NCBI GenBank assembly: GCA_035285165.1
Contig: JAYKHP010000018.1
Span: forward strand, 81,486-145,485
Source: Vampirovibrionales bacterium
Lineage (GTDB): Bacteria > Cyanobacteriota > Vampirovibrionia > Vampirovibrionales > Vampirovibrionaceae
Direction of reading: 5' to 3'
Length of the DNA stretch: 64,000 nucleotides
The position numbers and the translations under genes are program-made. Below are positions 8,918 through 63,388 of the stretch, piece by piece. Each line of letters starts with the position of its first letter. Position 1 is the stretch's first letter. The notes under the pieces are model-generated. The model did not search any database, was not told the origin of the DNA, and saw only the letters and a program-made list of their open reading frames with translations.

Positions 8918-10564
8918 ATGCTCACCCCCGTCAACGCATTCAAATTGTCTCGAATATACGAAAACGTGACTGCCCCGCGATTCGGGGAGAAAAAACCATC
9001 TGAAAGCGTCCCCGAACCGGCTGGAGTGGTTTCAAGGCGAGCTGTCCTGGGCGGGTTGGCGGCACTTTTGGCAACAGGCGTCGGGGGCGGCGTGGCCTAC
9101 AACTTACTGAATGATTCTGACTCCTCTTCCTCAAGAAGCACCCCTTCTCCTACTGGCGGTATTCAACTCGGGGTCGATTATACACAGGGGAAAGACGTTC
9201 GCTCGATGAGCGGACTGCTGAACGGTTTTGCCCAACGTGACGACGTGACAACCCCCTTGCCTCCCCCTGACGTGTTTAACGCACTGCAGCCCCAACTCTG
9301 GCGAACCGGTGAGGATATCAACGGGCAGCCCGGGCAAATGCCCCACCTCCCAGACATGCTGGCAAGTGGGGCAGCCATCGAATTCCTATTGAGCGAAGGT
9401 TACGGCTATCCGCTTAGCATAGGAGACAACTGGAAGCCTCCCAACAAGAATCAATCCCAATGGTTGCAAACCGTGGAAGGTGCGTTAAGACGATATCCCG
9501 AACTACAGGATCATTACCTGGAAATTTGGAACGAGCCGGATAACAGCATGATTCCCTGGACAGGCACTGACGATGACAACGCCAGGCAAGCCGTCGATCA
9601 AAGGGCCGCATTCTGGAATGGTACCTATGATGACTTTATCGAGACTTATATCCTGACGGTCAGAAAATTAAAAGAAATTAATCCAAACATTAAAGTTGGA
9701 GGGCCAAGCATTCGGGATTTCGATTCAACCCTTATCAGGAGATTCCTGGATGACTGCGCCGAAAACAACGTGGAAGTTAACTTTCTGGCCTGGCATGAAC
9801 TTGGCAATATTGATGACGCCAATGATTTCTCACAAATTAAACGCCATCTGGATGAAATCAATCAATACCTGGACGAAAACGATTACTGGAATAAACTGAA
9901 GCTGAGCGAAATTCACATCAACGAAATTGTGGGAAGAGCCTCGACTGAATTACCCGCGAACACACTTGCCAGCTACTATTATGCCGAAGAAGGCGGTGCC
10001 GCCAGAGCCGCCCGTGCTGGCTGGGAAAGCCAGATTGAGGAGGCAGAAACCGTCAGGAGCTACAACAATACGCTGGGCGGCCTGCTAACGCCTTTAAGCG
10101 GCCATAAAAAGCCTGTCTACGAGGCAATTAGAGCGTATGCCGGCATCAGTGAACGGAACCCGGAAAACCGAGGCAATCTGGAGTTTGAGGAAAATATTAC
10201 AAGGCCGTCGACGACTTTGGATTCGGGGGAACCGAATATCGTTGTGCTGGGAAGCCCAACTTACCGCCCGGGCAATCACAGAACCCTTCTGGTGGCCTAT
10301 GCCGATGCAAAAGGGACTAAACCTGTAAAAGACATTGATATAACCCTGGTGGATGACTCACTACCAGGGCAAAGCGTTGATGCCGTCAGTCAAAGCATTT
10401 TTGAAAGCGAGAAAAACGGCGACCAGCGCAACCGCGATTACACGCCACAGGAATTAGGAACGGTTCATCTACCGGTTCAGCAATCCAACGGACACAAACA
10501 GGTGGTTGTCCCCTTAAGGGAAGTAAAGCCCGGCGAGGTCAGGAAAGTCGACATTTTAGCTTAA
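8918..10564 (+). CDS. glycoside-hydrolase-like TIM-barrel protein with Tat-type signal
   Basis: N-terminus 'SRRAVLGGLAALLATGVGG' is a twin-arginine motif. 'EIWNEPDN' (NEP acid/base motif of clan GH-A) and 'LSEIHINEIVG' (nucleophile-like) are present. 548 aa. Confidence 0.6.
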   Translation: MLTPVNAFKLSRIYENVTAPRFGEKKPSESVPEPAGVVSRRAVLGGLAALLATGVGGGVAYNLLNDSDSSSSRSTPSPTGGIQLGVDYTQGKDVRSMSGLLNGFAQRDDVTTPLPPPDVFNALQPQLWRTGEDINGQPGQMPHLPDMLASGAAIEFLLSEGYGYPLSIGDNWKPPNKNQSQWLQTVEGALRRYPELQDHYLEIWNEPDNSMIPWTGTDDDNARQAVDQRAAFWNGTYDDFIETYILTVRKLKEINPNIKVGGPSIRDFDSTLIRRFLDDCAENNVEVNFLAWHELGNIDDANDFSQIKRHLDEINQYLDENDYWNKLKLSEIHINEIVGRASTELPANTLASYYYAEEGGAARAARAGWESQIEEAETVRSYNNTLGGLLTPLSGHKKPVYEAIRAYAGISERNPENRGNLEFEENITRPSTTLDSGEPNIVVLGSPTYRPGNHRTLLVAYADAKGTKPVKDIDITLVDDSLPGQSVDAVSQSIFESEKNGDQRNRDYTPQELGTVHLPVQQSNGHKQVVVPLREVKPGEVRKVDILA

Positions 10565-10578
10565 TTGAGAATATGAGA

Positions 10579-11292
10579 TTATGCCAGCCGGTTTAAACGC
10601 CTGGCCAGGCCTTGACCGACATCGCAACCCTCACAGGGCTTGTTTCCCTTCCGATTGACAGGCTCCGCCGAAAGATCTTCACCCCTGATATTACAGCAAA
10701 CCTCACGCGCGGAGCGTCCGGATATTCGAAGCGTAATCCATGGAGGCTCTGCCATATCCTGATCCTGTGCTTTCTTTTTGCGCTCCTGCGTAAAAAGCGT
10801 ATTCAACTTTTCTTGCGCCTTATCCGGAAACAATGACAAAACGGCCTTGCTGAATATCGCCAGATCATGCAACGGCAAGTCTTGCTCTGGATTGGCGACA
10901 TCCATCAAAACCCTGACCCCCAGATCGGGAAAAACATGTGTTTTTGTTTGGGAGGCTGTCTTGTAAGCAAGCTTGTCTCCTGGCGCTTTATACAATGGGG
11001 AAACAGGTTGCGGGGTGATATAAACAATAAGGCCTGAGTTGCCGTATACCCCCGTATGCCAGAGCGGGCCTATTTCCCACTCCTTGCGCAGAGCCTGCGC
11101 GGGCTTTCCTGAAAGGGCCTCTCTCAGGGCCGTGTTTAATTTTCTTCTCTCTAACTCAAAGCTATCCTCATCCGCTTGATTTCGACCGAATAAAAGTCTG
11201 CTCAAGGCATCCGCAGGCCTGGCCGCAAAAGGGTGTTTCAGGGGTTGATTACCCGTTTGATGATTGAGAGTGGCGGAAAAGAGAATGGCCAT
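10579..11292 (-). CDS. hypothetical protein (237 aa)
   Basis: ATG-initiated ORF with no recognisable domain. It has a C-terminal 'CEGC' motif. Confidence 0.45.
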   Translation of the reverse strand: MAILFSATLNHQTGNQPLKHPFAARPADALSRLLFGRNQADEDSFELERRKLNTALREALSGKPAQALRKEWEIGPLWHTGVYGNSGLIVYITPQPVSPLYKAPGDKLAYKTASQTKTHVFPDLGVRVLMDVANPEQDLPLHDLAIFSKAVLSLFPDKAQEKLNTLFTQERKKKAQDQDMAEPPWITLRISGRSAREVCCNIRGEDLSAEPVNRKGNKPCEGCDVGQGLARRLNRLA

Positions 11293-11516
11293 TATCAGAA
11301 TACTTACTTCGCTTAATGAGAATTACTCTCAATTAAAACCAAAGCAAAGCGACTTGTAAATGAGAATAAGTCTCAATACAGGTGCAAGCAGCAAAAAACT
11401 CCCCCTGGGTCGGCTTCTAAGGGCCAACGGAGTGCCTGTCATCAGGGACCGGTGGCGTGGGGGAGTCTTTAATGCTGTGGGTTATTAAGGCGAAAATGCC
11501 GCTATATCAATAAAAA

Positions 11517-12101
11517 TTAGATCTTGTAGACGTTTGTCGGCATGGATTTGCTGTCCTGAAGGGACATCCCCTCTTTTTTGGATTGGACTTCAATGCCCTT
11601 CATCATCGGGGCGAACTTCATGTTGTTCTTGAAGCGATCGCTGAGGGTGTCCACCAGACGTTTCGCCTCTTCAGAGCCGCCTTCAATGAATGTTTTGGCC
11701 ACGCGACCGATTTCATCCGGGGTGGGCTCGTGATCAAAGGCCTTACAGGATTTAAAGTAATCATAAATATTATTGACCAGATCCAGTGTCTGTTCAGCCA
11801 GAAAGGTCTGATGCTCTTCGGGCAGCACGTACATGTAGTTCATCGCCTTGTGCATCGAAGGATTCTTGTCATACGAACGCTGTTTTTTATGGGACTTGTA
11901 AAGCGCCATGACTTTCTCGGTACCTAAGGATTTTAATTGCGCGTAGACTTCATCCGCCTGGCATTCACGGACGGATAATGTCACGATGCCATCGGAGATA
12001 ATCGTCTGGATTTCCATCGGAAAGGCTTCCAGAAGTTTGACGCACTGGTTCAGCTTGGGGTTCTTCTCATACCAGCGGATGCTGCCTGGTTTTCTGCTCA
12101 T
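11517..12101 (-). CDS. hypothetical protein, 'RWYD' family paralog A1
   Basis: The ORF track starts at a TTG (12110), and an ATG at 12101 gives 'MSRKPGSIRWYEKNPKLNQCVKLLEAFP...'. It is clearly paralogous to 43945..44661, with shared blocks RWY-N-P-L-Q-V-LLE-P and KS--K-R-YD--P--H-A-N--Y. Confidence 0.55.
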   Translation of the reverse strand: MSRKPGSIRWYEKNPKLNQCVKLLEAFPMEIQTIISDGIVTLSVRECQADEVYAQLKSLGTEKVMALYKSHKKQRSYDKNPSMHKAMNYMYVLPEEHQTFLAEQTLDLVNNIYDYFKSCKAFDHEPTPDEIGRVAKTFIEGGSEEAKRLVDTLSDRFKNNMKFAPMMKGIEVQSKKEGMSLQDSKSMPTNVYKI

Positions 12102-12380
12102 AACGCTCAACTGCTCCTAAATCATTGTCAGGTGTAAATAGTCAGCCTGTGCAGCATCTTCAATACCGTGATGCCGACAATTCCGGTAATCACTAGTGTG
12201 CCGCCCTCAAAAGGCGCTGATTCCGTAGCCTTAAAGCCTCGCCCGTACTGAAAAAAGGACAAGCATACCAATCGCTGTCCCCGGGCTTGCTGAATGAGTT
12301 ATCGACACGGAAACGCGGAAACTTTAGCAAAGTCGCCCGTGAATGTAGCGGCCCTTAACAAAAGATGCCTTGCCCACGTT

Positions 12381-12404
12381 GTTCCCGCTTTAGCGGGAAT
12401 GACG
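12381..12404. repeat. dRS3/REP-like palindromic repeat copy
   Basis: 'GTTCCCGCTTTAGCGGGAATGACG' has the same family core (TTCCCGC-N4-GCGGGAATGACG) as the 5421..5537 element. Confidence 0.55.
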
Positions 12405-12436
12405 GCGTACGTTATCTTAGGTTCTAATAATGGGTT

Positions 12437-13063
12437 CTAATAATGGCTGTAGCCGTAATCGCCCTGCTCCAGCTTGGAGATGCGCTGTTGAAGATCATCC
12501 GATATTTTATCGACGACCACATGCAGCGGCAGACGGCTCCAACCGAAGGGGCCAGCGATTTTTTCCACGGTAAAGCCATTGAGAACGTCACGTTTGGGCG
12601 TCATGATAAACACCCGAAGCTTGGTGCAGGCCGTAGCGCCCGCGCACTCGATGCTGATCCGGTAGTCAGCGTTCTCGACGTTTTCGGTCATCTCAAGATA
12701 ATTATTCTTACTCAGCTCGTCGTTCAGCAGCTTGAGGAAGTTGGTCTGATCCTCGGGCTTCTGGGGGTAAACGGAAATCGGCGTCGGCGGATAATCCGGA
12801 TTATACACATAAATGGTGCGCTTGGCCGGAACAATGCTGACCGGAACAAAAGCGGCGTCTGTTTGGGCATCGCCTTGCTGCTGGGGAATCGGCATCGTCC
12901 AGCTAGGAACATCAGACAAGCCGGGTGTTGTTTCATTCACCCCTTGGGCGATTGCCTTTAATCCATACCCAATCGAAAGCGACTGTATAACCAATGCAAG
13001 CGATGCGCCCATTATCAGGGCAGGCCGGAGGGCCGAAACGCGAAAACTTTTTGCCATGCTCAT
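12437..13063 (-). CDS. secreted hypothetical protein, 'CxGxxC' family paralog B1
   Basis: There is a signal peptide ('ALIMGASLALVIQSLSIGYGLKAIAQG') and a GGAGA SD 6 nt upstream of the ATG. The motif 'LSKNNYLEMTENVENADYRISIECAGATACTKLRV' aligns with 'LSNNSVLPYKSPSDAALSLHCEGFECRKIVA' of 44686..45312. Confidence 0.6.
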   Translation of the reverse strand: MSMAKSFRVSALRPALIMGASLALVIQSLSIGYGLKAIAQGVNETTPGLSDVPSWTMPIPQQQGDAQTDAAFVPVSIVPAKRTIYVYNPDYPPTPISVYPQKPEDQTNFLKLLNDELSKNNYLEMTENVENADYRISIECAGATACTKLRVFIMTPKRDVLNGFTVEKIAGPFGWSRLPLHVVVDKISDDLQQRISKLEQGDYGYSHY

Positions 13064-13191
13064 TCTCCAAACAATTCAAAGGCCCTCTTGAAAAATCAAC
13101 AGCCGAGGGCATGCACTGAGAGACTTGTCGTCAGTCTTATGGTCGCATTGAATATCCGCTTCAGGTATCGAGCGGATGGAGGAGATTGCGC

Positions 13192-13635
13192 TTATTTCCT
13201 AACTGCTGTGAAAAACACCACGTGATCTTTGTCATAGCGTTGCAGGACGCCCATTTTTTGAAAACTCGCGTGGGCCTGGGGATCATTTTCCTTCATATGA
13301 GTCGAAAGCCGCTCCCACAGTTTCGCCATCCGATCACTCAGCTTTTCGCCATATTGCCTGATAACGGCAATATGGCCCAATTTCTCGCGTTTTGCGAAAC
13401 GCTCCAGGCGTAAATTTTTAAACCACAGGACAATATGACGGATAACCGGAATCTGGGGCGCCTTGATAAAAAACGTATTGTCCGTCGATAATTTATTAAA
13501 CGCATCGGTAAAATTAGAGGGCATATGCGGCGCCAGCACCTCATGCACTTTAAACAGTTCTTCAAGCCCAGCGTGCCGTGCAATGCTTTTGGGAACGTGG
13601 GCGGCACTGCGAACAGCGGTTTCAATGGCAGGCAT
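13192..13635 (-). CDS. hypothetical protein (147 aa)
   Basis: ORF immediately downstream of the MTHFR-family gene on the same strand. No recognisable domain. Confidence 0.45.
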   Translation of the reverse strand: MPAIETAVRSAAHVPKSIARHAGLEELFKVHEVLAPHMPSNFTDAFNKLSTDNTFFIKAPQIPVIRHIVLWFKNLRLERFAKREKLGHIAVIRQYGEKLSDRMAKLWERLSTHMKENDPQAHASFQKMGVLQRYDKDHVVFFTAVRK

Positions 13636-13737
13636 AAGCGTTTTCCTTGCTTGGTTTAATCCTAAAAAGGCTGTACCGCATTAAAACACGGCAACGCCAT
13701 ATGGTGCGCGCCCGTGATTGAAACGATCAAAGCCCGC

Positions 13738-14697
13738 TTAGGACAGCACCTTGCTTTCTGAAGCATTCACACGCTGGCCTTTGAAGCACTCTTCCAAAAG
13801 ATCGGGCATATATTTGAACATGCCCACCGGCATAAAATGAAAATGCGGATTGAGCGGCTGGATTTTGGCTACGAGATCGGCGCAAAACTTTAAGCTCTCT
13901 ATGGCAGGCGCTTCTGAGCGCTCCAAAAGATCAATCAACGATTGGGGAATATTCAGACCCACCACCGAATGGTTCATACGCCTGGCAGCCTCGGCAGACT
14001 TTGGCGGAATAATGCCCGTCATTACCACCGGCGTTGGGCATCCCACCATGGCACTCGCTGCGGTCACCGCCTCAAGCATTTCGGCAATAGGCTCCAGCGA
14101 ATAAACCGGCTGGGTCTGGAAGAAATCCACACCGCATTCAAGCTTCTGCTGCAAACGCAACTGCTGGGCACGATTATGCAGCCTGAACGGGTTTAAGGCC
14201 GAGCCTACCGCAAAGCGTGTCCCGCCATTTGGCAAGACGGTCGCGGTGGCGTCCATGCCGTTATTGAGATAGCGCAGCAAGTCCAGTAAACGAACCGAAT
14301 CCAGGTGAAACACCTGCTTGGCCACTTCCTTTTGATCGCCAAGCTGCACCGGATCACCGGTCAGAGCAAGAATATTGCGCAATCCCAACGCGTAGCCGCC
14401 CATTATATCAGCCTGCAGCGCCAAAAGATTTCGGTCACGACAGGTCAACTGCCATACCGTCTCAATGCCGGTGGCCTCCTGAATCAGCTTGCAGGTCGCC
14501 ATTGAACTCATTTTCAGCAGCGCCAACTGACAGTCAGGGACGTTGATGGCGTCCACCCGGCCTTTTAACTGCTCCGCCTGGCGCAATAGCCTGGCCGTAT
14601 CCGTTCCCTTGGGCGGCGAAAGCTCCACCGTCACCAAAGGCTGGCCGGACTGGAGCTTCTCAAGGAAACTGGTTTTGGAACACGCTGCTTCCGTCAT
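13738..14697 (-). CDS. methylenetetrahydrofolate reductase (MetF/MTHFR) family protein
   Basis: 'VTVELSPPKG' corresponds to the MetF 'VSFEFFPPRT' motif. 'ALTGDP' and 'HFHFMPVG' correspond to MetF 'ALRGD' and 'HFYTLN'. 319 aa. Confidence 0.7.
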   Translation of the reverse strand: MTEAACSKTSFLEKLQSGQPLVTVELSPPKGTDTARLLRQAEQLKGRVDAINVPDCQLALLKMSSMATCKLIQEATGIETVWQLTCRDRNLLALQADIMGGYALGLRNILALTGDPVQLGDQKEVAKQVFHLDSVRLLDLLRYLNNGMDATATVLPNGGTRFAVGSALNPFRLHNRAQQLRLQQKLECGVDFFQTQPVYSLEPIAEMLEAVTAASAMVGCPTPVVMTGIIPPKSAEAARRMNHSVVGLNIPQSLIDLLERSEAPAIESLKFCADLVAKIQPLNPHFHFMPVGMFKYMPDLLEECFKGQRVNASESKVLS

Positions 14698-14743
14698 TTA
14701 AATAACCCTATGGCAAGAAAACCCATATCACCCTAGTCTAGCG

Positions 14744-16243
14744 TTAATTAAGACTCGGTGTCAGGTTAAACAGTCCGCTTGCCGTCTCAAACGCCTGGGC
14801 GACCTGCAGCAGGCGGAACTCCTCACAATGCCTGCCCAATATTTGTAAACCAATCGGCAGTTTCTGCCGGTCAAACCCGCAGGGAATACTGATTGCGGGA
14901 ATCCCCACCAGGTTAACCGGAATGGTGGAAATATCCGACAAGTACATGCTCACCGGGTCGTTGGCCTTCTCGCCAATCTTAAAGGCCGTGGTCGGCGCGG
15001 TGGGACAAATCAAAACGTCCACTTTGGCAAAGGCATCGGCAAATTCCCTGGCCAAGAGCTTTCTGGCTTTTTGTGCCTTGCCGTAATAAGCATCATAATA
15101 GCCCGAGCTAAGCGCAAAGGTGCCTAGCATAATGCGGCGCTTGACTTCGGGGCCAAAGCCCTCGCCACGGGTCTTGCAGTAAGTGCTGTAAATATCGTCC
15201 CGCTCAACGCGAAGGCCATAGCGAACGCCGTCAAAACGCGCCAGGTTAGAGCTGGCTTCCGCCGTGGCGACGATGTAATAAGCGGCGACAGCGGCGCTGA
15301 TACTGGGAATGGCCACTTCGGACACTTCAGCCCCAAGCGACCTGAGCGTTTGAACCGCGTTTTGAAAGGCTTCGCTGACCTCGGCCTGCATCCCCTGGCC
15401 GTTTAATTCAGAAATAACGCCCACTTTGAAGCCGGCAAGCGTCTTGCCCGCCATTTTCTGAACAGCGGCCAGATAATCGGTATCCTTGGCAGTAATGGAA
15501 GTTGAATCGTTGCGGTCAAAGCCAGCGATCACTTGCAAAAGCCCAGCCGTATCAGCGACGTTACGGCCAAAGGGGCTGATCTGATCCAGGCTGCTGCCGA
15601 AAGCGACAAGACCGTAACGGGACACCAGGCCATAAGTAGGCTTCATGCCCACAAGCCCGCAGAGGCTGGCTGGCTGGCGGACACTGCCGCCGGTGTCTGA
15701 GCCCAGCGAAAGCAAGGTTTCGCCTTGTGAAACCACCGCGGCAGAGCCGCCTGAACTGCCACCGGGAACGCGATCGAGATCCCAGGGATTGCGTGTAGGT
15801 TGAATGGCGCTGTTTTCCGTCGAGCTGCCCATGGCAAACTCGTCGAGGTTGGTCTTGCCGACAATGGGCATCAGGTGGGCGCGCAGTTTTTCAGTCACCG
15901 TGGCGTCGTAGGGGGAGACGTAACCCTCAAGAATCTTACTGGCGCAGGTGGTGGGATAGCCCGAGACGTTGATATTATCTTTAACGGCAATGGGCACGCC
16001 CGCCAGAAGCGGTAGCGTTTCACCCGCCTTGACCTTGGCGTCAACGGCCTTTGCGGTTTCATAGGCCAGGTCTTTGGTCAGCGAAAGAAAGCCGCCGATT
16101 TTAGCGTCGTCGCGCTCGATTCTTGCAAAGGTTTCATCCAACACCTCGACCGCCGAACACTCGCCGTTTTGGATCGCCTCATGGAGTTGAAGGGCCGACT
16201 TTTTTTCCGACGTTCTATCCGCTGTTTCGGCCATTGTAAACAC
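14744..16243 (-). CDS. gatA: Asp-tRNA(Asn)/Glu-tRNA(Gln) amidotransferase subunit A
   Basis: The amidase signature 'GGSSGGSAAVV' is present and the ORF is a full-length 499 aa GatA-like sequence. The start is a GTG (16243) or an ATG 9 nt downstream. No gatC or gatB is adjacent. Confidence 0.9.
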   Translation of the reverse strand: MFTMAETADRTSEKKSALQLHEAIQNGECSAVEVLDETFARIERDDAKIGGFLSLTKDLAYETAKAVDAKVKAGETLPLLAGVPIAVKDNINVSGYPTTCASKILEGYVSPYDATVTEKLRAHLMPIVGKTNLDEFAMGSSTENSAIQPTRNPWDLDRVPGGSSGGSAAVVSQGETLLSLGSDTGGSVRQPASLCGLVGMKPTYGLVSRYGLVAFGSSLDQISPFGRNVADTAGLLQVIAGFDRNDSTSITAKDTDYLAAVQKMAGKTLAGFKVGVISELNGQGMQAEVSEAFQNAVQTLRSLGAEVSEVAIPSISAAVAAYYIVATAEASSNLARFDGVRYGLRVERDDIYSTYCKTRGEGFGPEVKRRIMLGTFALSSGYYDAYYGKAQKARKLLAREFADAFAKVDVLICPTAPTTAFKIGEKANDPVSMYLSDISTIPVNLVGIPAISIPCGFDRQKLPIGLQILGRHCEEFRLLQVAQAFETASGLFNLTPSLN

Positions 16244-40397: not shown

Positions 40398-41483
40398 ATG
40401 AGAGCAGATGACCGGATTGAGGACAATCGATTTCCTGACGCCTTAGGCGCTGTTACAGGCGGGCACGAGGGAATAAGATTAAGCGAGCTGCGTGACGCCC
40501 AGACGCCCTTATGGCGGCAATGGGGAAACCGGCTTGGCTTTGCGCTTCGGCAATTCATGGGGGAAAACGCAAGCAGCAGAGGCATAAACGCATACATTGA
40601 GCCTGTCGAGGACAAATCGGCCTTGTTTGCAGGCAACGAGGGCGTATGGCTGAGCGAGCTTGGATGGCTTAAGGAACCCTACCGGCTGACCCCCACGCAG
40701 GTGACTCGTTTTAAAAGCCTGCTGCAGCTTTATGATTTGTCAGCGTTTTATGAAAATAGCAGCCGCTTACGATTACTGGAAGTGATGAGCGTTTTGGATT
40801 ATCTGGATCAATTCCAGCAGGCGCAGCCTTTTTTTGATTCATCATGCCTTCACCAGCGCGTATGTTGTCATTGGCTGGATGTTGGAAGCAAAAACTGGGC
40901 TTATGTTCACGCGCTCTGGGCTTTTCTCAACCGCCATTGGCGAAACGAAAACAGCACATCAAAAGATAACGCGCTGAGGAAAATCCACATCGACGGCGTG
41001 GAAATCGACAGCGAAAGACGCTATCGTGACGGCTACACCAGGGCGGATTACGCCAGAAGCTATATCAATGCGTTACCTTGGCCCGAAGACGCGCGTTATC
41101 ACAGAGGCGATATCCGCACATGGCAAGGATATCCGCAGGAACCTGGAGAGGGGAAATTTAAAGGCTACCCGATCATCACATGCTTTTTGCCCTTCGTCTT
41201 TGCCGACCCGCATTTCGCATGGGGACTTCCCGCCTCGCGCTTTGACCCTTCCGGCCTGTTGCAGCGTATGTTAGCGCTTTTGGCAAACAGCGGAACATTG
41301 ATCATCACCAATCAGGGCGAGGATGAGGCACAGGCGCAAGCAGCCCTGCTCAGAATGGCGCGAAAACAAATGGCCGTGGAAGGGTTTGAACTTCGCATCA
41401 CGGCGTTTGGGGCATTGCCTGAAACCTTTCTGCCCACCCAATACAAGCGCTATGGCTTTTTATGCCGTAAGATGGCTTTTTAA
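40398..41483 (+). CDS. hypothetical protein (361 aa)
   Basis: ATG ORF immediately upstream of rdgB on the same strand, separated by a 5-bp gap. No family recognised. Confidence 0.5.
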   Translation: MRADDRIEDNRFPDALGAVTGGHEGIRLSELRDAQTPLWRQWGNRLGFALRQFMGENASSRGINAYIEPVEDKSALFAGNEGVWLSELGWLKEPYRLTPTQVTRFKSLLQLYDLSAFYENSSRLRLLEVMSVLDYLDQFQQAQPFFDSSCLHQRVCCHWLDVGSKNWAYVHALWAFLNRHWRNENSTSKDNALRKIHIDGVEIDSERRYRDGYTRADYARSYINALPWPEDARYHRGDIRTWQGYPQEPGEGKFKGYPIITCFLPFVFADPHFAWGLPASRFDPSGLLQRMLALLANSGTLIITNQGEDEAQAQAALLRMARKQMAVEGFELRITAFGALPETFLPTQYKRYGFLCRKMAF

Positions 41484-41488
41484 AACCC

Positions 41489-42187
41489 ATGAGCATTTCG
41501 CATTCCTCACCACTAACAATCCTGTTGGCCACGCAGAGCGAGGGCAAACGACGCGAATTTGAACGGCTGGGAGAAAATTTTCAACTTGCTTTTGACTTTG
41601 TCTGCGCACCAGCAGGTCTTGATATCGAGGAAACGGGCGCTACGTTTTTGGAAAACGCCCGTTTAAAAGCGCTGGGCTATTGGCAAAAGCTTTCTCAAGA
41701 CCAGGGATTTTTAAAATCGGCGCCGGGCATTGATTATGTTCTGGCCGAGGATTCGGGGCTGGAGGTAATGGCGCTTGCCAGCCTCTCGCAACAAGGCTGC
41801 TTTCCGGGAGTTATCTCCAAGCGCTGGCTTAATGGACATCCAAACGTGACGCAGGCTAATTTGAACCAGGCACTCTTAAAGCTTATCCATGAAGAACAGG
41901 CAAACGAGCTAGCTGGCAATCGTTCAGCGGCGTATCATTGCGCCATGGTCTTGCTGGATGTGAAAACAGGGGAGATGATTGAGGCACAGGAGGCGATGCC
42001 GCTTCTCGTGGCGACAGCGGCAAGAGGCGAAGGCGGCTTTGGCTACGACCCGATTATGCACCCAGTCGTCAATGGGATCGCGATGGTTGAAACAGTCGCC
42101 GAGATAAGCCCCGAGCTTAAGAACCATCTCAGCCATCGTGGCAAGGCGTTTCGGCAAGTGCTGAAAGCCTTGAAGATAAGCTTGTAA
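41489..42187 (+). CDS. rdgB: non-canonical purine NTP pyrophosphatase (RdgB/Ham1 family)
   Basis: 'ILLATQSEGKRREF', 'EDSGLEV' and 'GFGYDPIM...SHRGKAFRQVLKAL' match the RdgB blocks. There is an internal insertion relative to E. coli RdgB. Confidence 0.75.
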   Translation: MSISHSSPLTILLATQSEGKRREFERLGENFQLAFDFVCAPAGLDIEETGATFLENARLKALGYWQKLSQDQGFLKSAPGIDYVLAEDSGLEVMALASLSQQGCFPGVISKRWLNGHPNVTQANLNQALLKLIHEEQANELAGNRSAAYHCAMVLLDVKTGEMIEAQEAMPLLVATAARGEGGFGYDPIMHPVVNGIAMVETVAEISPELKNHLSHRGKAFRQVLKALKISL

Positions 42188-42323
42188 AGCGTTGCGGGTA
42201 TTTTCCAACCAAAGAGGATTGTTTTGGCTGCACAGCGGAGTATGGAAAGTAAAGTCTTCGCAAGTCATCCCATTTGCAGACAGATCAATCCTCTTTGGTT
42301 GGAAAATACCCGCAACGCTTTGG

Positions 42324-42998
42324 CTAATTAAATTCCAGGTTTGAAAGAACGTCAAACGTCGTCTGCTGAAGACGATAGCGAGGCGGGCCAAAGCTTCGAA
42401 GATAAGAGCTGTCGGAACCGGGGATATAACTGGGAGAGTATATGCTTAAGTCGGCGATACGAATCTGGGTGGGCTGCGTGTTGTCCGTCACCGTATTGAA
42501 AACCCCCGGGGTTGCCGTTGGCTCCAGTCGAAAACCCTGAAAACAAGGCGTAGCACCCGCCGGAATCGTGGCGGAGCATGTCATGCGCAGGGCGGGACGA
42601 AATTCGGCAGGCCCCTGGCGGTTAAAGACCTTGCTCTGACCCGCCGCTGTTCTGCGAATACTGCTGACCCCGGCAACGCCAGGGGAGGGATCACTGTAGA
42701 CTTCGTAAAGAATAGTATTACCGTCGGGATCCGTGATGCTCAACTGGGTTCCACCGCCCAGCACTTCAACGTGCGTCGAGCGCATCAGGTCGAAACGAAG
42801 CTCGCTCAGCAGGTTATTGACCACCAGGTGCATCGTGTTATACAGACGGTCGTTCATTTGCGACTCAACCCCGCCTCGAATCAGCGACGCCACGCCAATG
42901 GCCAGAATAGACATCACCATCATCGCAATGGCAAGCTCAATGAGCGTTACACCCATGTATTTCCGCAAACTCTGAAATCGCTTCAAAACGGACTCCAT
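42324..42998 (-). CDS. prepilin-type (type IV pilin / T2SS pseudopilin-like) protein
   Basis: The N-terminal leader ends in 'G|VTLIELAIAMMVMSIL', with Glu at +5. This is the class III signal peptide/methylation motif. Confidence 0.7.
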   Translation of the reverse strand: MESVLKRFQSLRKYMGVTLIELAIAMMVMSILAIGVASLIRGGVESQMNDRLYNTMHLVVNNLLSELRFDLMRSTHVEVLGGGTQLSITDPDGNTILYEVYSDPSPGVAGVSSIRRTAAGQSKVFNRQGPAEFRPALRMTCSATIPAGATPCFQGFRLEPTATPGVFNTVTDNTQPTQIRIADLSIYSPSYIPGSDSSYLRSFGPPRYRLQQTTFDVLSNLEFN

Positions 42999-43015
42999 TT
43001 GCTTGTCAAGATCAG

Positions 43016-43498
43016 TTAGTGGCGACGGGTAATCACGCCATTGTCAACCGTAAAGTCAGTCCAATCGGCTGAAAGCGCCTGTAAAACGACATTCCCGTCT
43101 GCGTCGACCGAGAAGTTGGCCCAACGGCCACTGGTGGTGATGGAAAGACGGACATTGGGAGCGGCGTTGCTGAATACCAGTTCGCGCCGGTTCTGCATGA
43201 GCAGGTTGGCTGCCGTCAGGACGTTATTCCGCTGGCTTGCCAGGAGATTGGCGGGAGAGGTGTCGGCACGGGTTGAACCTTGAGAAATAACTTGTTGAAG
43301 TGCCGCCTGGCCGCTTTGAACGGCAGCGGCATCGCGTACCTCTGTCGTGGTGGCCCAGTTCCCAATAGCGACTGCCGAAAGCACCGCCACGATACCGAAA
43401 ATGACACATAATTCCAGCAAGGTGAAGCCTTTCCCGCTGGCACGAAAGGCGCTTGGGCGGAAATGGTTCTGGCTGGCGCTGAAGAAAGAGGAAATCAT
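43016..43498 (-). CDS. prepilin-type pilin/pseudopilin (160 aa)
   Basis: 'KG|FTLLELCVIFGIVAVL' is the canonical prepilin cleavage/methylation motif. It follows an unusually long (~24 aa) leader. Confidence 0.7.
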   Translation of the reverse strand: MISSFFSASQNHFRPSAFRASGKGFTLLELCVIFGIVAVLSAVAIGNWATTTEVRDAAAVQSGQAALQQVISQGSTRADTSPANLLASQRNNVLTAANLLMQNRRELVFSNAAPNVRLSITTSGRWANFSVDADGNVVLQALSADWTDFTVDNGVITRRH

Positions 43499-43944
43499 GA
43501 ACCAGTAGAGCCTGTTTAAACGGTTGATTGCTTAGGTTTACGGGACGGCTTGCCCGGCAGATCATTTTATATGGCTAAAAGCGACTGTCTCGGGCTCAGA
43601 TGAAGTAGGGTTAACACCTGTAAAAAGGACTTGATATTATTTCGGCCTCCCCGGGGAAAACTTGAGCAAGGCCCTTTTTACAAGGTTTTCAGGCTTACGG
43701 GAACAGACCATTCACCAACGGAAGCCAATCCTCCTGATTATAACAGTCCACATCGCTTTACGGTGGTATAAACCCTGTTGAATACAATACCTGGAGGGCC
43801 TGAGAGCTAAAACGCCGTCCGTTCACCTGAAAAATGGCAGTCTGTCCAGATTTCAACTATTAAACTTGTGGAAAAAACGCCGATAATTACCGTAGCGTTA
43901 ATGGTTAACTTTTGCAAAACATAGACGGACAGACGGGCACCGCC

Positions 43945-44661
43945 ATGGCCGCAACCAAAATCGGTTTCACACGATGGTACGACAACATCCCGGAACTTGC
44001 CCAGGCGGTTCGGCTGCTTGAACGCGTGCCGGAGAATGTGAGCAGTATCATTTGCGAGTCGGTGGTCAACTCTCATGAATACAACGGTGAGGATAACACC
44101 AGCGAGGATTACGGCCTGAAAAAACTGGGCGCGCAGAAAGTCCTTGGCCTGATGAAGTCAAAAACCAAACGCCGCTGGTATGATCAGCATCCCGTCATTC
44201 ACCGCGCCTTCAATACGCTCTATATGATGGACGACACCTTGCGCTACGAAACGGCCATCCGCATCCTGGTCGCCCTTGAGGCGTTAAAACAGCATGATTT
44301 AAAGCTGTCCGGCAAAGAATTTACCGTTCAACGCCCCCCAGAATTAAACCAAAAAGAATTAAGTGAAGAAGAACATCAGCAGATGGTGCGCGAAATCGTG
44401 ACGCGCTCGCAACGAAAACTGGTGCAGAATATTTTCCTGCAACCCACCGGCAGCTTGCTGAATAAAATCCAGTTCGTTCAACAGCAAAAAGATAAACAGG
44501 ATCCGCAGCCCCCTGCAAAAACAGCAGAAATGACGGAAACCACCATTGCCAGCAGTGATCGGATTATCGAGTCCAATGAAGGCTTAAAGCTCGATGGCCT
44601 GAGCTTTGAGACGATTCGCAGCGACAGTCTGAAGAACAACAACCTGCACCATCTGCTCTAG
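43945..44661 (+). CDS. hypothetical protein, 'RWYD' family paralog A2
   Basis: The track ORF starts at a TTG (43912), and the ATG at 43945 gives 'MAATKIGFTRWYDNIPELAQAVRLLERVP'. It is homologous to 11517..12101 over the first ~120 aa. Confidence 0.55.
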   Translation: MAATKIGFTRWYDNIPELAQAVRLLERVPENVSSIICESVVNSHEYNGEDNTSEDYGLKKLGAQKVLGLMKSKTKRRWYDQHPVIHRAFNTLYMMDDTLRYETAIRILVALEALKQHDLKLSGKEFTVQRPPELNQKELSEEEHQQMVREIVTRSQRKLVQNIFLQPTGSLLNKIQFVQQQKDKQDPQPPAKTAEMTETTIASSDRIIESNEGLKLDGLSFETIRSDSLKNNNLHHLL

Positions 44662-44685
44662 GCAATTTGAAGCGGCAAGGGGAAA

Positions 44686-45312
44686 TTATTGGGGTTCGAT
44701 GCGCGGGGCGGAATCCTGAAGAATCATATCGTGGGTATCCATTCCCTCGTTTTGCAGATCCTGGGTTAGCGGAAACATATCACCTTGGGAGGGTGCCTGG
44801 CTGTTTTGGCTCACCGTCTTGAAATGCCCGGACTGCGCCTGCGCGTAATCAGCCAATAACGATTGCACGATTGCGTTAGCGATATCCTCGCTTTCGCGCT
44901 TGTAATACGTCAGCCATTTGTACTTGAACACCGACTCCTCATGTCGCCAAAGAACCGGCGCGTTTGGCGCACCGCCTTGTGACTGCAGTGAAATTTCAGC
45001 AACGATTTTGCGGCATTCAAAACCTTCACAGTGAAGTGACAAGGCCGCATCCGACGGGGATTTGTAAGGTAAAACGCTATTGTTGCTTAACGAACGCTGA
45101 ATCCACATCGGGATATCGGCACCCGGCGTCTGATCGGAAGTAATCGGCGCGTTAAAACGGGCCAAATCCAGTGAGGAAATATCTTTTAACCCCAGAACAA
45201 CATCAGGGCTTGCCGGACGAAGCTCCTGGGCTGAAACTGGCGCGCCGCCAAAAGCCAAAAGAGCGCCTGTGGCAAGCAGCACGGGCAATACATTTAAGCG
45301 TGTACGAGTCAT
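44686..45312 (-). CDS. secreted hypothetical protein, 'CxGxxC' family paralog B2
   Basis: There is a signal peptide 'LNVLPVLLATGALLAFGGAPVSA'. 'LSLHCEGFECRKIVA' aligns with B1 'ISIECAGATACTKLRV'. Confidence 0.55.
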   Translation of the reverse strand: MTRTRLNVLPVLLATGALLAFGGAPVSAQELRPASPDVVLGLKDISSLDLARFNAPITSDQTPGADIPMWIQRSLSNNSVLPYKSPSDAALSLHCEGFECRKIVAEISLQSQGGAPNAPVLWRHEESVFKYKWLTYYKRESEDIANAIVQSLLADYAQAQSGHFKTVSQNSQAPSQGDMFPLTQDLQNEGMDTHDMILQDSAPRIEPQ

Positions 45313-45355
45313 ATCAATCCGTCCTACACTACTGGCCTAAACTATTCGGCCAACT

Positions 45356-45841
45356 CTAGATATCGAGATCGCTTGCGCCGTCAAGAATACCGCCAATGCC
45401 AAGCGTACCGACACCATTGCCTATTGAGGAAGCATTTTGAGACTGCGTGGTGTTCAGGCTTTGGATGCGTTGCTGCATCAACTGGAACTGCTGCATCATC
45501 ATGCGCATCATATTCTGGTTATACGCCTGCATTTGCTGGGTATAGGCGATCATTTCCTGGTTAAACCTGGCCACGGCGTCCGGGTTGCTATTATCCTCAG
45601 GCGGTGTGGGTGGGGTGGGAACATTCAGATTGGTGCTGCCTGCTACGCCAAGATACGAGGAAAACGAGTTGCCGATGCCTTGATACTGGGCGAACGGATC
45701 GCTTTTCAGGCCTACTTGAGAAGGCTCCACCATAATGCCCCCCTGCCGCAGCAGGCCGTATTGAAAAACTTTCAGCATATGGCCAAAATCCATCGGGGAT
45801 CTCCATTCCTGAATTAAGGGGCGAACTTGTATTGATTCCAA
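45356..45841 (-). CDS. hypothetical Q/M/N-rich protein (161 aa)
   Basis: ATG ORF. It has a low-complexity 'QQMQAYNQNMMRMMMQQFQLMQQ' region and a Gly-rich C-terminus. Confidence 0.4.
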   Translation of the reverse strand: MESIQVRPLIQEWRSPMDFGHMLKVFQYGLLRQGGIMVEPSQVGLKSDPFAQYQGIGNSFSSYLGVAGSTNLNVPTPPTPPEDNSNPDAVARFNQEMIAYTQQMQAYNQNMMRMMMQQFQLMQQRIQSLNTTQSQNASSIGNGVGTLGIGGILDGASDLDI

Positions 45842-45998
45842 GGTGGTCTTATAGGCGATAAGCTATTTTTCAAAAAAAGCAAGAATAGCCTGTATAAGTT
45901 TCGGCGGCTAATGAAGCAACTTCAATAAAAAAGAAGCGCTGGATTCCCTAAACGGTATAATAAAGCTGTCCCAACAAATCAGGCTTCAAAATCCCCCT

Positions 45999-47621
45999 AT
46001 GGCGCTTCGTGAAAAAACAACGGCATACTTCAGCAAGCTAAACCCTTCAACCGGCCTGCCGCTGGCGAATTATCCCATTGCCGGGCAAGCTGAAATCATC
46101 CATGTCATCCGCCAGGCAAGACGGCACCAAAGGGAATGGCAAAATGCGCCGCTTAAAGATCGGGCGTCTGTTCTCAAAGCCGTTGAAGTCCTACTTAAAA
46201 AAGAGGCTGAACGCCTGGCCAAACTGGTCAGCCAGGAAGTGGGCAAACCCGTTAGCGAAGTTTATGAAACCGAGCTGCTCAGCGCCGTTGGCATTTTGGG
46301 GTATTACGCCACAACCGGCCCAAAAATTCTCAAGGAACGTCTGCTCCCCCTCGACAAGTCGATTCTGATGGGGCGTCTGCATTGGCGGCGCTTGGTTCCC
46401 CGTGGGGTTGTGGGGATTATTTCCCCGTGGAATTTCCCGCTCGCCATTCCCACCAGCGGCATTGCCGCAGCGTTAATGGCAGGAAACGCGGCTATCTTAA
46501 AGCCCAGCGAGCATAGCCCCGCAACGGGCCTTGCGCTTTGCGCGATTTTTCAGCAGGCGCTTCGGCAAAAAGGCTTTTCGCCAGAACTGGTGCAGTGTGT
46601 TATCGGCGATGGGCAAAGCGGTCAATGGCTTTGCCAGCCGGCACAGGATATTACCGATTCAGTGGACTACGCCATTTTTACCGGCAGCGGTAAAACCGGC
46701 AGACGGATTCGGGAGATGATGTCTGAAAGCGGCCGGGAAGCAAGCCTTGAATTGGGCGGCAGCGATCCGACGATCATTTTGCCCGACAGCGATTATGACG
46801 CCGCCACCAGTTATGCCCTCTGGGGAAGACTGACCAACGCGGGGCAAATGTGCGCCGCCACAAAGCGCCTGATCGTTCCCAAGCATGATTACGAAGAAAT
46901 TTTATCGCTCCTGAAAAACAAGGTGGCGCAACTCAAAGTGGGCCCGCCCGAAAATCCGGAAAATCAAATCGGCCCGCTCATCAGTGAGGCGCAGCGCCAA
47001 CTGGTGCTGGCCCAAGTTGAAGAAGCGCTTTCCAAGGGCGCGCGGCTGATCACGGGCGGCAAGGCGTTACCCGGCAAGGGTTATTTTATGCAACCGACCG
47101 TATTGGCGGACGTTTTTCTCAACGCCCGGGTGGTGAACGAGGAAGTCTTCGGGCCGGTGCTTCCGGTATTGGCTTATGACAGTGTCGAAGAAGCCATCGC
47201 GCTTGCAAACCAAAGCAGTTTTGGCTTAACCGCAAGCGTGTTTGGCCCTGTGGCAAAGGCGCGGTCGGTGGCCGAAAAACTGCAGGCGGGGTGCGTTACG
47301 ATAAACGATGTAGGGGCCACCAGCTTTTCGGTGGCGCAGATTCCATGGAGAGGCTGGAAAGCCAGTGGCCCAGGCGGCAGCCACGGGGAGCAGTCCCTTC
47401 TTGAATTATGCCTGCAACAAACCCAGAGCGTGAATCTACTCTACGCCTTCCCGACTTTTCGCAAACAACCCTGGCACTATTCAAAAGGCGAGTATCAAAA
47501 AAACCGCCTCAGCTTGGGCAACACATTGCTCCATCACTACGCCGGAGAAAGCTGGCTTGAAAAGTTGAGTCCGAAACTTTTGCTGGCTTTGCTGGCACAC
47601 CGCAGCAGCCGCAAGTTGTAA
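45999..47621 (+). CDS. aldehyde dehydrogenase family protein
   Basis: The catalytic-Cys region 'TNAGQMCAATKRL' and 'ELGGSDP' (conserved Glu) are present. 'SPWNFP' is the ALDH NAD-binding motif. 540 aa. Confidence 0.85.
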   Translation: MALREKTTAYFSKLNPSTGLPLANYPIAGQAEIIHVIRQARRHQREWQNAPLKDRASVLKAVEVLLKKEAERLAKLVSQEVGKPVSEVYETELLSAVGILGYYATTGPKILKERLLPLDKSILMGRLHWRRLVPRGVVGIISPWNFPLAIPTSGIAAALMAGNAAILKPSEHSPATGLALCAIFQQALRQKGFSPELVQCVIGDGQSGQWLCQPAQDITDSVDYAIFTGSGKTGRRIREMMSESGREASLELGGSDPTIILPDSDYDAATSYALWGRLTNAGQMCAATKRLIVPKHDYEEILSLLKNKVAQLKVGPPENPENQIGPLISEAQRQLVLAQVEEALSKGARLITGGKALPGKGYFMQPTVLADVFLNARVVNEEVFGPVLPVLAYDSVEEAIALANQSSFGLTASVFGPVAKARSVAEKLQAGCVTINDVGATSFSVAQIPWRGWKASGPGGSHGEQSLLELCLQQTQSVNLLYAFPTFRKQPWHYSKGEYQKNRLSLGNTLLHHYAGESWLEKLSPKLLLALLAHRSSRKL

Positions 47622-62538: not shown

Positions 62539-62931
62539 TCAGTCTGAGCTTAAATCATTCGAGGCTGAGGCGCTGGGGGCCTTCAGCGTATCTTGCCGCT
62601 GGGGCAACGCTTTTTCTTCATCCAGCAATTGCCGGGTTTCATTGAAAAAATTCAATTCATCGAAGGCCGCATCCTCCGACGAGCTTGTGTGGAATTCAAT
62701 TTCCATCGTCGGCTTCAGCAACACTTTCAAGGCAACCGCCAGAATAATCCACAGCAGAATGCCTTGTCCAAAATGAATGGCGGGGCCATGAAAACCTTCA
62801 AAGACCAAGGCGTTCCAAGTCACCATTAACGCCAATGCGGGCAACATGGCAATGGCGAGCAATACGGCCAAGATAACCGTAATAAAGAGCGCAAGCCCTG
62901 ATAACCCTTTGATATGAAATTCCTGGTTCAT
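62539..62931 (-). CDS. hypothetical two-TM membrane protein (130 aa)
   Basis: ATG ORF with two clear TM helices and an acidic C-terminus. Confidence 0.45.
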   Translation of the reverse strand: MNQEFHIKGLSGLALFITVILAVLLAIAMLPALALMVTWNALVFEGFHGPAIHFGQGILLWIILAVALKVLLKPTMEIEFHTSSSEDAAFDELNFFNETRQLLDEEKALPQRQDTLKAPSASASNDLSSD

Positions 62932-63388
62932 AGTTAAAAACCCTTTGTTCGCTTTTGAAAGAAGCCGCCTCGCATTCGATTTTCAAGAGGGGGAAGTTCC
63001 GACATCGGCTGAAAAACTAAAAACCTTAAAGAAAGAGCAATAATTTAAAAAATTAATATTAAAAGTATATATTATTGATAGTAGTCATCTTAGCATATGC
63101 CACAAACAATGGCTGTTGATACTAGCCTGGAGAATGATTCACAACGACTGCCGTAATCGTTAAAACGAACGTTTTATTAGGATTATCGTTCATATGGAAG
63201 GGCTAAAGACTTAGCCAAAGGCCTTTTCGGTGTTTTTATCACACCCTCGGCGCTACAAATGGCAGTTAACGGCTCGGGAATATATTTACAAATCACATAC
63301 ACACTGCAGATGTTAAACGGCAAAGCCGTGAGTTGTGTATCTATATGAATTACCCAATTTGCTAATGCACTAAAAGCTGATTTAATTA

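Follow-up and report, generated by a model that had tools for sequence, protein, structure and literature searches.

The Vampirovibrionales, predators without photosynthesis, are the sister lineage of the cyanobacteria and can hardly be worked with in the laboratory. In a related phylum, the pilin gene pilA1 of Synechocystis is driven by SigF, a group-3 alternative sigma factor, whose reported promoter elements differ from the TAAA/GCCGATAA consensus described here. Class-3 promoters of sigma-28 (FliA/SigD, group 3) have the form TAAAGTTT-N11-GCCGATAA; the -10 element of the sigma-28 consensus is GCCGATAA and the -35 element TCTAAAG (PMC12784957). For Vampirovibrio chlorellavorus, both a flagellum and type IV pili are reported to be encoded (PMC4451040). 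We examined a stretch of 64,000 nucleotides from a metagenome-assembled genome (MAG) of a Vampirovibrionales bacterium (GCA_035285165.1, contig JAYKHP010000018.1, positions 81,486 to 145,485), called the window in the following. In an initial annotation, two of its genes, A2 and B2, had been flagged as the second copy (locus 2) of a duplicated two-gene module, with A1 and B1 as the first copy (locus 1). The flagged pair is the centre of a cluster conserved in Vampirovibrionales, consisting of two pilin genes (pilinX and pilinY), A, B and C. All genes of the cluster, which come from a Vampirovibrionales MAG, are deposited as hypothetical proteins, and the window otherwise holds housekeeping genes.

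We consider it fairly probable that this lineage-specific cluster was inherited by descent, that one sigma-28-type promoter serves the pilin pair, a second one in the opposite direction A2 and a third one C2 and B2, the latter two converging on A2, and that A and B are linked at most at the level of a regulon. The genes most likely form a lineage-specific motility or envelope set in a sigma-28-type regulon. The alignment of the intergenic region between pilinY and A from seven loci contains two conserved blocks, TAAA-N15-GCCGATAA, on opposite strands. When the window was scanned strictly, for TAAA-N14-16 with at most one mismatch in GCCGATAA, three matches were obtained compared with 0.52 expected; two of them are located directly upstream of A2 and A1. 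For scoring, the consensus TAAAGTTT-N10-12-GCCGATAA with 16 positions and the canonical gap N11 was used. In 284 kb (window and loci of other genomes, numbered L001 and so on) ten matches of at least 14/16 were found, compared with 0.45 in shuffles. All ten are positioned upstream of A (five), the pilin pair (four) or C (one), none at housekeeping neighbours. Eight of the ten loci in the A2-side clade have a match of at least 13/16 at a distance of 39-66 nt from the start codon. The pilin-pair motif recurs at the orthologous position, as a perfect TAAAGTTT-N11-GCCGATAA in L001 and with 14/16 in L003, L004 and L006. Upstream of C, the alignment of five loci (window, L001, L003, L004 and L007) contains a related block, TTGAAGTTT-N11-sCCGAwA, and the copy of L003 scores 14/16. 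The motif, its conservation and its specificity are observed; we infer from its sequence that a FliA-type sigma factor reads it.

The third match of the strict scan, TAAA-N15-GGCGGATAA at window positions 12768-12794 (+), lies antisense inside B1 and is probably due to chance.

Both elements and their spacing agree with sigma-28 class-3 promoters at 14-16 of 16 positions, and the distance to the start codons is kept among diverged genomes. In contrast to the described systems, the genes found here are no homologues of known flagellar, chemotaxis or class-3 genes, two of them are type IV pilin-like, and the sigma factor was not seen in the window. The control of a pilin gene by a group-3 sigma factor in Synechocystis may be analogous, but no homologues of A, B or C are present there as far as the searches show. 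A further likeness exists to the minor-pilin and pseudopilin clusters of type IV pili and type II secretion, as two genes with N-methylation motif flank A, B and C (four in L001). Unlike in those clusters, A, B and C are without class III signal peptide, B2 carrying an ordinary Sec signal, and no assembly ATPase, platform or secretin gene is found nearby.

The gene order pilinX(-), pilinY(-), A(+), B(-), C(-), aldehyde dehydrogenase (Aldedh) (+), cytochrome c (-) was detected in the window and in L001, L003, L004, L007 and L008. On its far side, hemB, an unknown gene of 300-360 amino acids (aa) and Ham1 are usually found. The adjacency of A2 and B2 is therefore part of a syntenic block of about ten genes, reaching from hemB to cytochrome c and including Ham1 and the aldehyde dehydrogenase. 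Among the syntenic genomes the identities amount to 56-66 % for hemB, 41-49 % for Aldedh, 42-56 % for C, 32-48 % for A and 22-41 % for B. Further genes can stand between A and B, namely two extra pilin genes in L001 (L001:6616-7947) and a 604-aa transporter-like gene in L007 (L007:2572-4386). In L001 these two pilin genes come right after C-B in the same orientation and thereby connect B and C with the pilins.

In the window, the unknown gene of the block corresponds to a 361-aa orphan open reading frame (ORF) at 40398-41483 (+) without Pfam match. It is lineage-specific and conserved between hemB and Ham1 in L003, L004, L006 and L008 with 32-44 % identity.

A block of this kind could also be a by-product of slow rearrangement. 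The adjacency of A2 and B2 would then be meaningless, and the motif either a general trait of a large regulon or a site for a regulator or sigma factor other than sigma-28. The functionally unrelated genes hemB, Ham1, aldehyde dehydrogenase and cytochrome c within the block are consistent with this explanation, as are L005, where an A2-type gene and the motif are kept without B, C and pilins, and L009 and L012, where deep-branching A genes are located in other gene contexts. Furthermore, no group-3 sigma gene was seen in the 64-kb window. On the other hand, a by-product would not be expected to place every strong motif match at a promoter of A, the pilins or C, to match the sigma-28 consensus up to 16/16 with correct spacing (L001), or to leave pilin genes directly downstream of C-B in L001. 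We regard this explanation as improbable.

The positions of all features are given in Table 1. The initial annotation located A2 on the plus strand with ATG as probable start, and B2 on the minus strand as a protein with signal peptide and CEGFEC motif, the two genes being convergent at a distance of 24 bp. All of this was found to be correct. The ORF of A2 has a TTG at 43912 and an ATG at 43945 and ends at 44661 (+). TTG 43912 was ruled out as start, since the N-termini of the orthologues align with ATG 43945 and the deposited protein also begins there. The ORF table and the stop codons, which face each other across 24 bp, give the convergent layout. In this gap no intrinsic terminator, hairpin or unusual structure was detected (z = 0.45), and Rfam at permissive thresholds gave no match in 42000-46200. 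A Q/M/N-rich ORF next to B2, described with 161 aa as a possible member of the same neighbourhood, is indeed a conserved gene beside B and is called C2 here. Its extent had to be corrected: the alignment of orthologues rules out TTG 45841 as start and points to ATG 45793. As C2 is co-directional with B2 at a gap of 43 bp, C2-B2 is likely an operon. For pilinX, Pfam N_methyl was matched with E 1.7e-4, and the GspI/PilV-type NCBIfam matches were weak; orthologues are present in L001, L003, L004, L006, L007 and L008. Orthologues of pilinY were found at seven loci with 35-47 % identity.

Table 1 Positions of genes and promoter-like motifs at both loci of the window, and of motif sites at loci of other genomes
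Feature	Position	Strand	Remarks
pilinX	42324..42998	-	Type IV pilin-like, 224 aa; second gene of the pilin pair, divergent from A2
pilinY (VKJ04_07035)	43016..43498	-	Type IV pilin-like, 160 aa; N_methyl motif and prepilin-peptidase-dependent pilin matches
A2 (VKJ04_07040)	43945..44661	+	238 aa; from ORF table, ATG form equal to the deposited hypothetical protein
B2 (VKJ04_07045)	44686..45312	-	208 aa; identical to the deposited hypothetical protein
C2 (VKJ04_07050)	45356..45793	-	145 aa; upstream of B2, same direction, 43-bp gap
A1	11517..12110	-	197 aa from TTG; paralogue of A2 (tblastn/BLASTP), in A1-type clade
B1 (VKJ04_06890)	12437..13063	-	208 aa (deposited 206 aa); predicted Sec export, C-x5-C, C-terminal GDYGY tail
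Pilin-pair motif	43639..43665	-	TCAAGTTT-N11-GGCCGAAAT, 13/16; points at the pilin pair
A2 motif	43861..43886	+	TAAACTTG-N10-GCCGATAA, 14/16, -10 perfect; 58 nt upstream of ATG
C2 motif	45898..45924	-	TGAAGTTG-N11-CCGAAAC, 12/16, weaker; upstream of C2
A1 motif	12299..12326	-	TAAAGTTT-N12-GTCGATAA, 15/16; in the B1-A1 gap, 188 nt upstream of A1
Window regions with motifs upstream of genes	43499-43944, 12111-12436, 45794-45998		
Motif sites in other loci	L001:5830-5856, L003:3663-3689/3879-3905/5918-5944, L004:5193-5219/5404-5430, L006:7746-7773/7899-7925		

In our preferred reading, the three transcription units (pilin pair, A and C-B) would be switched on with the late motility or surface-appendage programme, as implied by the shared sigma-28-type promoter signature. 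A2 would stay in the cytoplasm and most likely act as adaptor or regulator that docks onto a partner via its C-terminal peptide. This role is suggested by a folded two-repeat domain, a disordered linker and a conserved peptide of GMK[IL] type. B2 is predicted to be exported by Sec as a small, disulfide-stapled alpha/beta domain. It probably acts in the envelope, possibly with C2 and plausibly with the pilin-like proteins. The genes A and B are convergent, the predicted compartments of their products differ and insertions between them are tolerated. Therefore, the link between A and B is at most a shared regulon and not a directly interacting two-gene module. The selected functional linkage proposed in the initial annotation is retained in this weaker form, at the level of a regulon and for locus 2 only; a co-transcribed A-B unit was not found.

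Searches with single proteins and with family alignments gave nothing above threshold for A, B1, B2 and C in Pfam, NCBIfam, PHROGs and the PDB sequences. Sub-threshold matches to Pfam, NCBIfam and PHROGs were scattered and inconsistent among the members of a family. The families A, B and C are uncharacterised and narrow.

Homologues of A are few. A pattern scan with one genome per species identified 12 loci, all in Vampirovibrionales/Melainabacteria MAGs, two of which bear the labels of filamentous cyanobacteria. A scan of viral contigs gave no relatives of A, and a phage origin was thus ruled out. In the neighbour-joining tree of the N-terminal domain, the A1-type clade stands apart from the A2-type clade, and both types occur together in the MAG CAYLWC01 (L007 and L011). 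The duplication of A hence predates the split of these genera, and A1 and A2 are an old pair of paralogues.

The AlphaFold2 (AF2) models of A2 and B2 were built from shallow alignments and have a mean predicted local distance difference test score (pLDDT) of 62-65. For A2 (mean pLDDT 65.5), residues 10-123 reach about 90, with a loop of low confidence at 50-62 as the exception, and residues 177-238 are below 50. According to the model the N-terminal domain is all-alpha, with two similar three-helix units, each opening with RWYD-x2-P. The repeat was also detected by BLASTP, and the domain is an internal duplication. An invariant basic stretch, KSKxKRRWYD, is positioned between the two units. 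The tail consists of a disordered linker of very variable length, followed near the C-terminus by a conserved [DE]G[ML]K[IL], which is present in nearly all of the 21 sequences of the family alignment (EGLKL in A2). A has no signal peptide and is presumably cytoplasmic. Foldseek gave no match of the A2 model in the PDB (best E 0.9).

Two of the A2-type genes come from MAGs labelled Coleofasciculaceae and Oculatellaceae, i.e. as filamentous cyanobacteria. L003 (DATNPJ010000039.1) has the gene together with the Vampirovibrionales-type synteny block, and L005 (DATNQC010000413.1) has the gene. This suggests that the contigs were mis-binned. Tandem pairs of A1-type genes were observed at L011:7380-8522 and L014:7950-9375. 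The pair of L011 is followed by genes which look phage-like by eye (portal-like and capsid-like N-termini).

Judged by its sequence, the N-terminus of B2 is a type I signal peptide for Sec (...APVSA|QE), and CEGFEC occurs only once in the window. In the family, nine columns are invariant, including both cysteines, which are spaced as C-x4-C. An N_methyl match was detected for both pilin genes but not for B2, which has no class III pilin signal of the form G|F-x-x-x-E with a hydrophobic N-terminal helix. In the model (mean pLDDT 62, core about 70-85) the order of elements is beta-alpha-beta-beta-beta-alpha, and the two cysteines flank the turn of the central hairpin. Foldseek ranked HPF, the TolB N-domain and PqiC highest in the PDB, as weak matches with E 0.024-0.09, a probability of up to 0.95 and TM-scores of 0.23-0.30 on the query; none reaches E 0.001. 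The secondary-structure order of the B2 model resembles the TolB N-domain, the lipoprotein PqiC and HPF/YfiA, and TolB and PqiC are envelope proteins, as predicted for B2. In contrast to these proteins, B2 has no lipobox, and no sequence similarity to them was found. To our knowledge, the invariant cysteine pair closing the hairpin has no counterpart in the TolB-N, PqiC and HPF families. In C, a conserved N-terminus of 35 aa is followed by a PTPPTPP linker and then by a helix rich in Q, N and M. Its orthologues adjoin B in five other loci (42-56 % identity).

A further explanation, in which B2 (or A2) would be spurious or a pseudogene, could draw on two observations: a word-indexed protein search with B2 alone returned only B2 itself, and no family annotation exists. 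However, B2 is an intact ORF of 208 aa equal to the deposited gene model. Orthologues stand at the syntenic position in five genomes, with E values from 2e-31 (L001) to 3.5e-5 and of 1e-58 to 1e-72 with the hidden Markov model (HMM) of the B2 family, and the profile search added three further database proteins. As real orthologues keep the nine invariant columns with both cysteines, B2 is not a pseudogene, the case named in the initial annotation as a refutation of its module; a spurious or decayed gene is extremely improbable.

At locus 1, both A1 and B1 are on the minus strand, B1 upstream of A1, so that the pair is co-directional as annotated. A1 is the sole paralogue of A2 in the window (tblastn, E 4e-16); its start is more likely ATG 12101 than the TTG. 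The BLASTP similarity of A1 and A2 (E 3e-19, 40 % identity) is confined to some 92 residues of the N-terminal domain. As B1 the ORF 12437..13063 (-) was taken, the sole ORF near A1 with signal peptide and Cys-loop. The ORF 10579..11292 (-) downstream of A1 was rejected as alternative B1: it has neither similarity to B2 nor a homologue at any locus. The B1 family, which comprises small exported proteins with C-x5-C and a C-terminal GGYGY-like tail, was followed by an exhaustive HMMER search from B1 that yielded 47 clusters, B2 not among them; a metagenome scan with the family gave a single locus.

Pairwise BLASTP of B1 and B2 was not significant (E 0.52), and the HMM of the B2 family matched B1 at noise level (E 3.3). 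At the profile level, hhalign connected the two families with 91.3 % probability (E 9.6e-7, 83 columns), whereas the same profiles gave 0.1-0.2 % with unrelated families as controls. These columns span one helix, the Cys-loop hairpin with the strand after it, and the C-terminal helix. Searching about 1,000 ORFs with the HMM of the B1 family, the best non-self matches were members of the B2 family (E 0.017-0.18), and the HMM of the B2 family matched B1-type proteins with E 4.6e-4 to 0.24. The hhalign result with its clean controls and the mutual weak HMM matches indicate homology of the two families at the superfamily level only, with a divergence far beyond that of A1 and A2. The cysteine motif of B is common to both types only as C-x4-C (B2-type) versus C-x5-C (B1-type). 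Hence, the description of locus 2 as a second A/B copy applies to A by direct similarity, and to B by homology at the profile level only.

B1-type genes are located directly downstream of gatA-metF at all six loci (window, L015, L016, L017, L019 and L021), with one small ORF between metF and B1 in the window. A DUF5522 gene often follows (window 12437-14697; L015, L016, L017, L019, L021). The B1-type genes are without the promoter-like motif (best score 11/16 at most). An A gene near a B1-type gene was found only in the window and the close relative L015 (A1 and metF both 78 % identical), where a 298-aa gene on the other strand separates the B1-type and A1-type genes (L015:5768-6664). The -35 half of the A1 motif is kept in L015 and the -10 half is degenerate. 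In L016, L017 and L019 no A-like gene was detected within 1.7-5 kb of downstream flank of the B1-type gene; with a flank of only about 0.6 kb, L021 is uninformative on this point. No B-like gene adjoins the A1-type genes of L010, L011 and L014. The adjacency of A1 and B1 is thus restricted to this lineage. In the simplest reading, B1 has long had its place near metF, and A1 came beside it in this lineage. An ancestral order metF-B1-A1 with later loss of A1 elsewhere is also compatible with this sample. Within our preferred history, B1 and B2 would have diverged further than A1 and A2, with B1 anchored at gatA-metF without the motif.

The N-terminus of the 298-aa gene of L015 is hydrophobic and has a pilin-like look.

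The initial annotation explained both pairs by duplication of an ancestral A-B module as a unit, inversion of one copy and retention of the adjacency since the products cooperate. Both pairs are homologous (A with E 3e-19, B at the superfamily level with hhalign at 91.3 % and mutual HMM matches), and paralogues of both families stand adjacent twice within 32 kb, which is improbable by chance. As B evolves faster than A among orthologues, the deeper divergence of B alone does not exclude a single duplication. Moreover, the A1-type genes differ in context from locus to locus and look mobile, so that a secondary loss of A1 is conceivable. On the opposite side, conservation of the adjacency was observed for locus 2 in six genomes, and for locus 1 outside the window in L015 alone, and there with the intervening gene. 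The proximity is absent at the B1-type loci L016, L017 and L019 and at the A1-type loci L010, L011 and L014. B1 is anchored at gatA-metF, with an A gene nearby solely in the window and L015. Comparison of the DNA of both loci (42000-47000 versus 9500-14800; blastn with word size 7, tblastx) recovered the N-terminal domain of A and nothing else, and the duplication scars that had been proposed as a check were not found in the flanks. A and B never share a transcription unit; A1 is preceded by a promoter-like motif of its own, B1 by none. Insertions between A2 and B2 are tolerated, and the predicted locations, cytoplasmic for A and exported for B, make a direct interaction unlikely. The duplication followed by inversion under selected adjacency is consequently not supported. 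Because the double adjacency is a mild coincidence that is left unexplained, we keep the duplicated module as an unlikely alternative. The case also calls for caution: paralogues adjacent twice resembled a selected module, and the comparative context shows one of the adjacencies to be lineage-restricted.

In a further reading, A could be a hitherto unrecognised, Vampirovibrionales-specific regulator or adaptor of the sigma-28-type late-motility programme and B and C new exported or pilus-associated proteins, the recurrent proximity of A and B reflecting an ancient partnership. As examples, A might be a FlgM-like sigma-binding factor or a switch between flagellum and pilus during prey attachment. 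We rate this reading as quite improbable. FlgM-type anti-sigma-28 factors and the chaperones FliS, FliT and FlgN are a lead only for A. By analogy to these proteins, A is presumably cytoplasmic, is helical and partly disordered, carries a conserved C-terminal peptide and is encoded behind a sigma-28-type motif. A differs from them by its double length and by the well-folded N-terminal domain with two repeats, and it has no fold match in the PDB. Models of FlgM, FliS, FliT and FlgN were absent from the Pfam/NCBIfam results of A even at E <= 1.

Several observations weigh against the regulon-level reading favoured here. An A paralogue stands beside a paralogue of the B superfamily twice in one genome, which the reading does not explain. 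Should the families be unrelated, we roughly estimate the chance for a single relocation among about 2,500 genes at about 0.1 %. Conservation of the gene order might be neutral, as unrelated housekeeping genes are also syntenic. In the window the motifs are weak for the pilin pair (13/16) and for C (12/16), and the background at 12/16 is high, with 22 matches compared with 9.3 expected. No sigma-28, flagellar or pilus-machinery gene was found within the 64-kb window, so that the assignment of the sigma factor derives from the resemblance of the consensus. The proposed roles of A, B and C are without support from homology or a significant fold match.

Promoter-motif-defined regulons and pilin-linked accessory genes are known kinds; new is the regulon signature. 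By sequence evidence, three orphan families (A, B and C) are tied to pilin genes and to a flagellar-type promoter motif. This gives the three families a testable context in motility and prey attachment. It is a first regulon signature, with which other late-motility genes of these genomes could be predicted.

Outside both loci, a site TAAGGTTT-N11-GCCGATGT with 13/16 was detected at window positions 63002-63029 (-), 71 nt upstream of the ORF 62539..62931 (-). Given the high background at 12/16, it could be a chance match, or else mark a further member of the regulon. The ORF encodes 130 aa and looks like a small multi-pass membrane protein.

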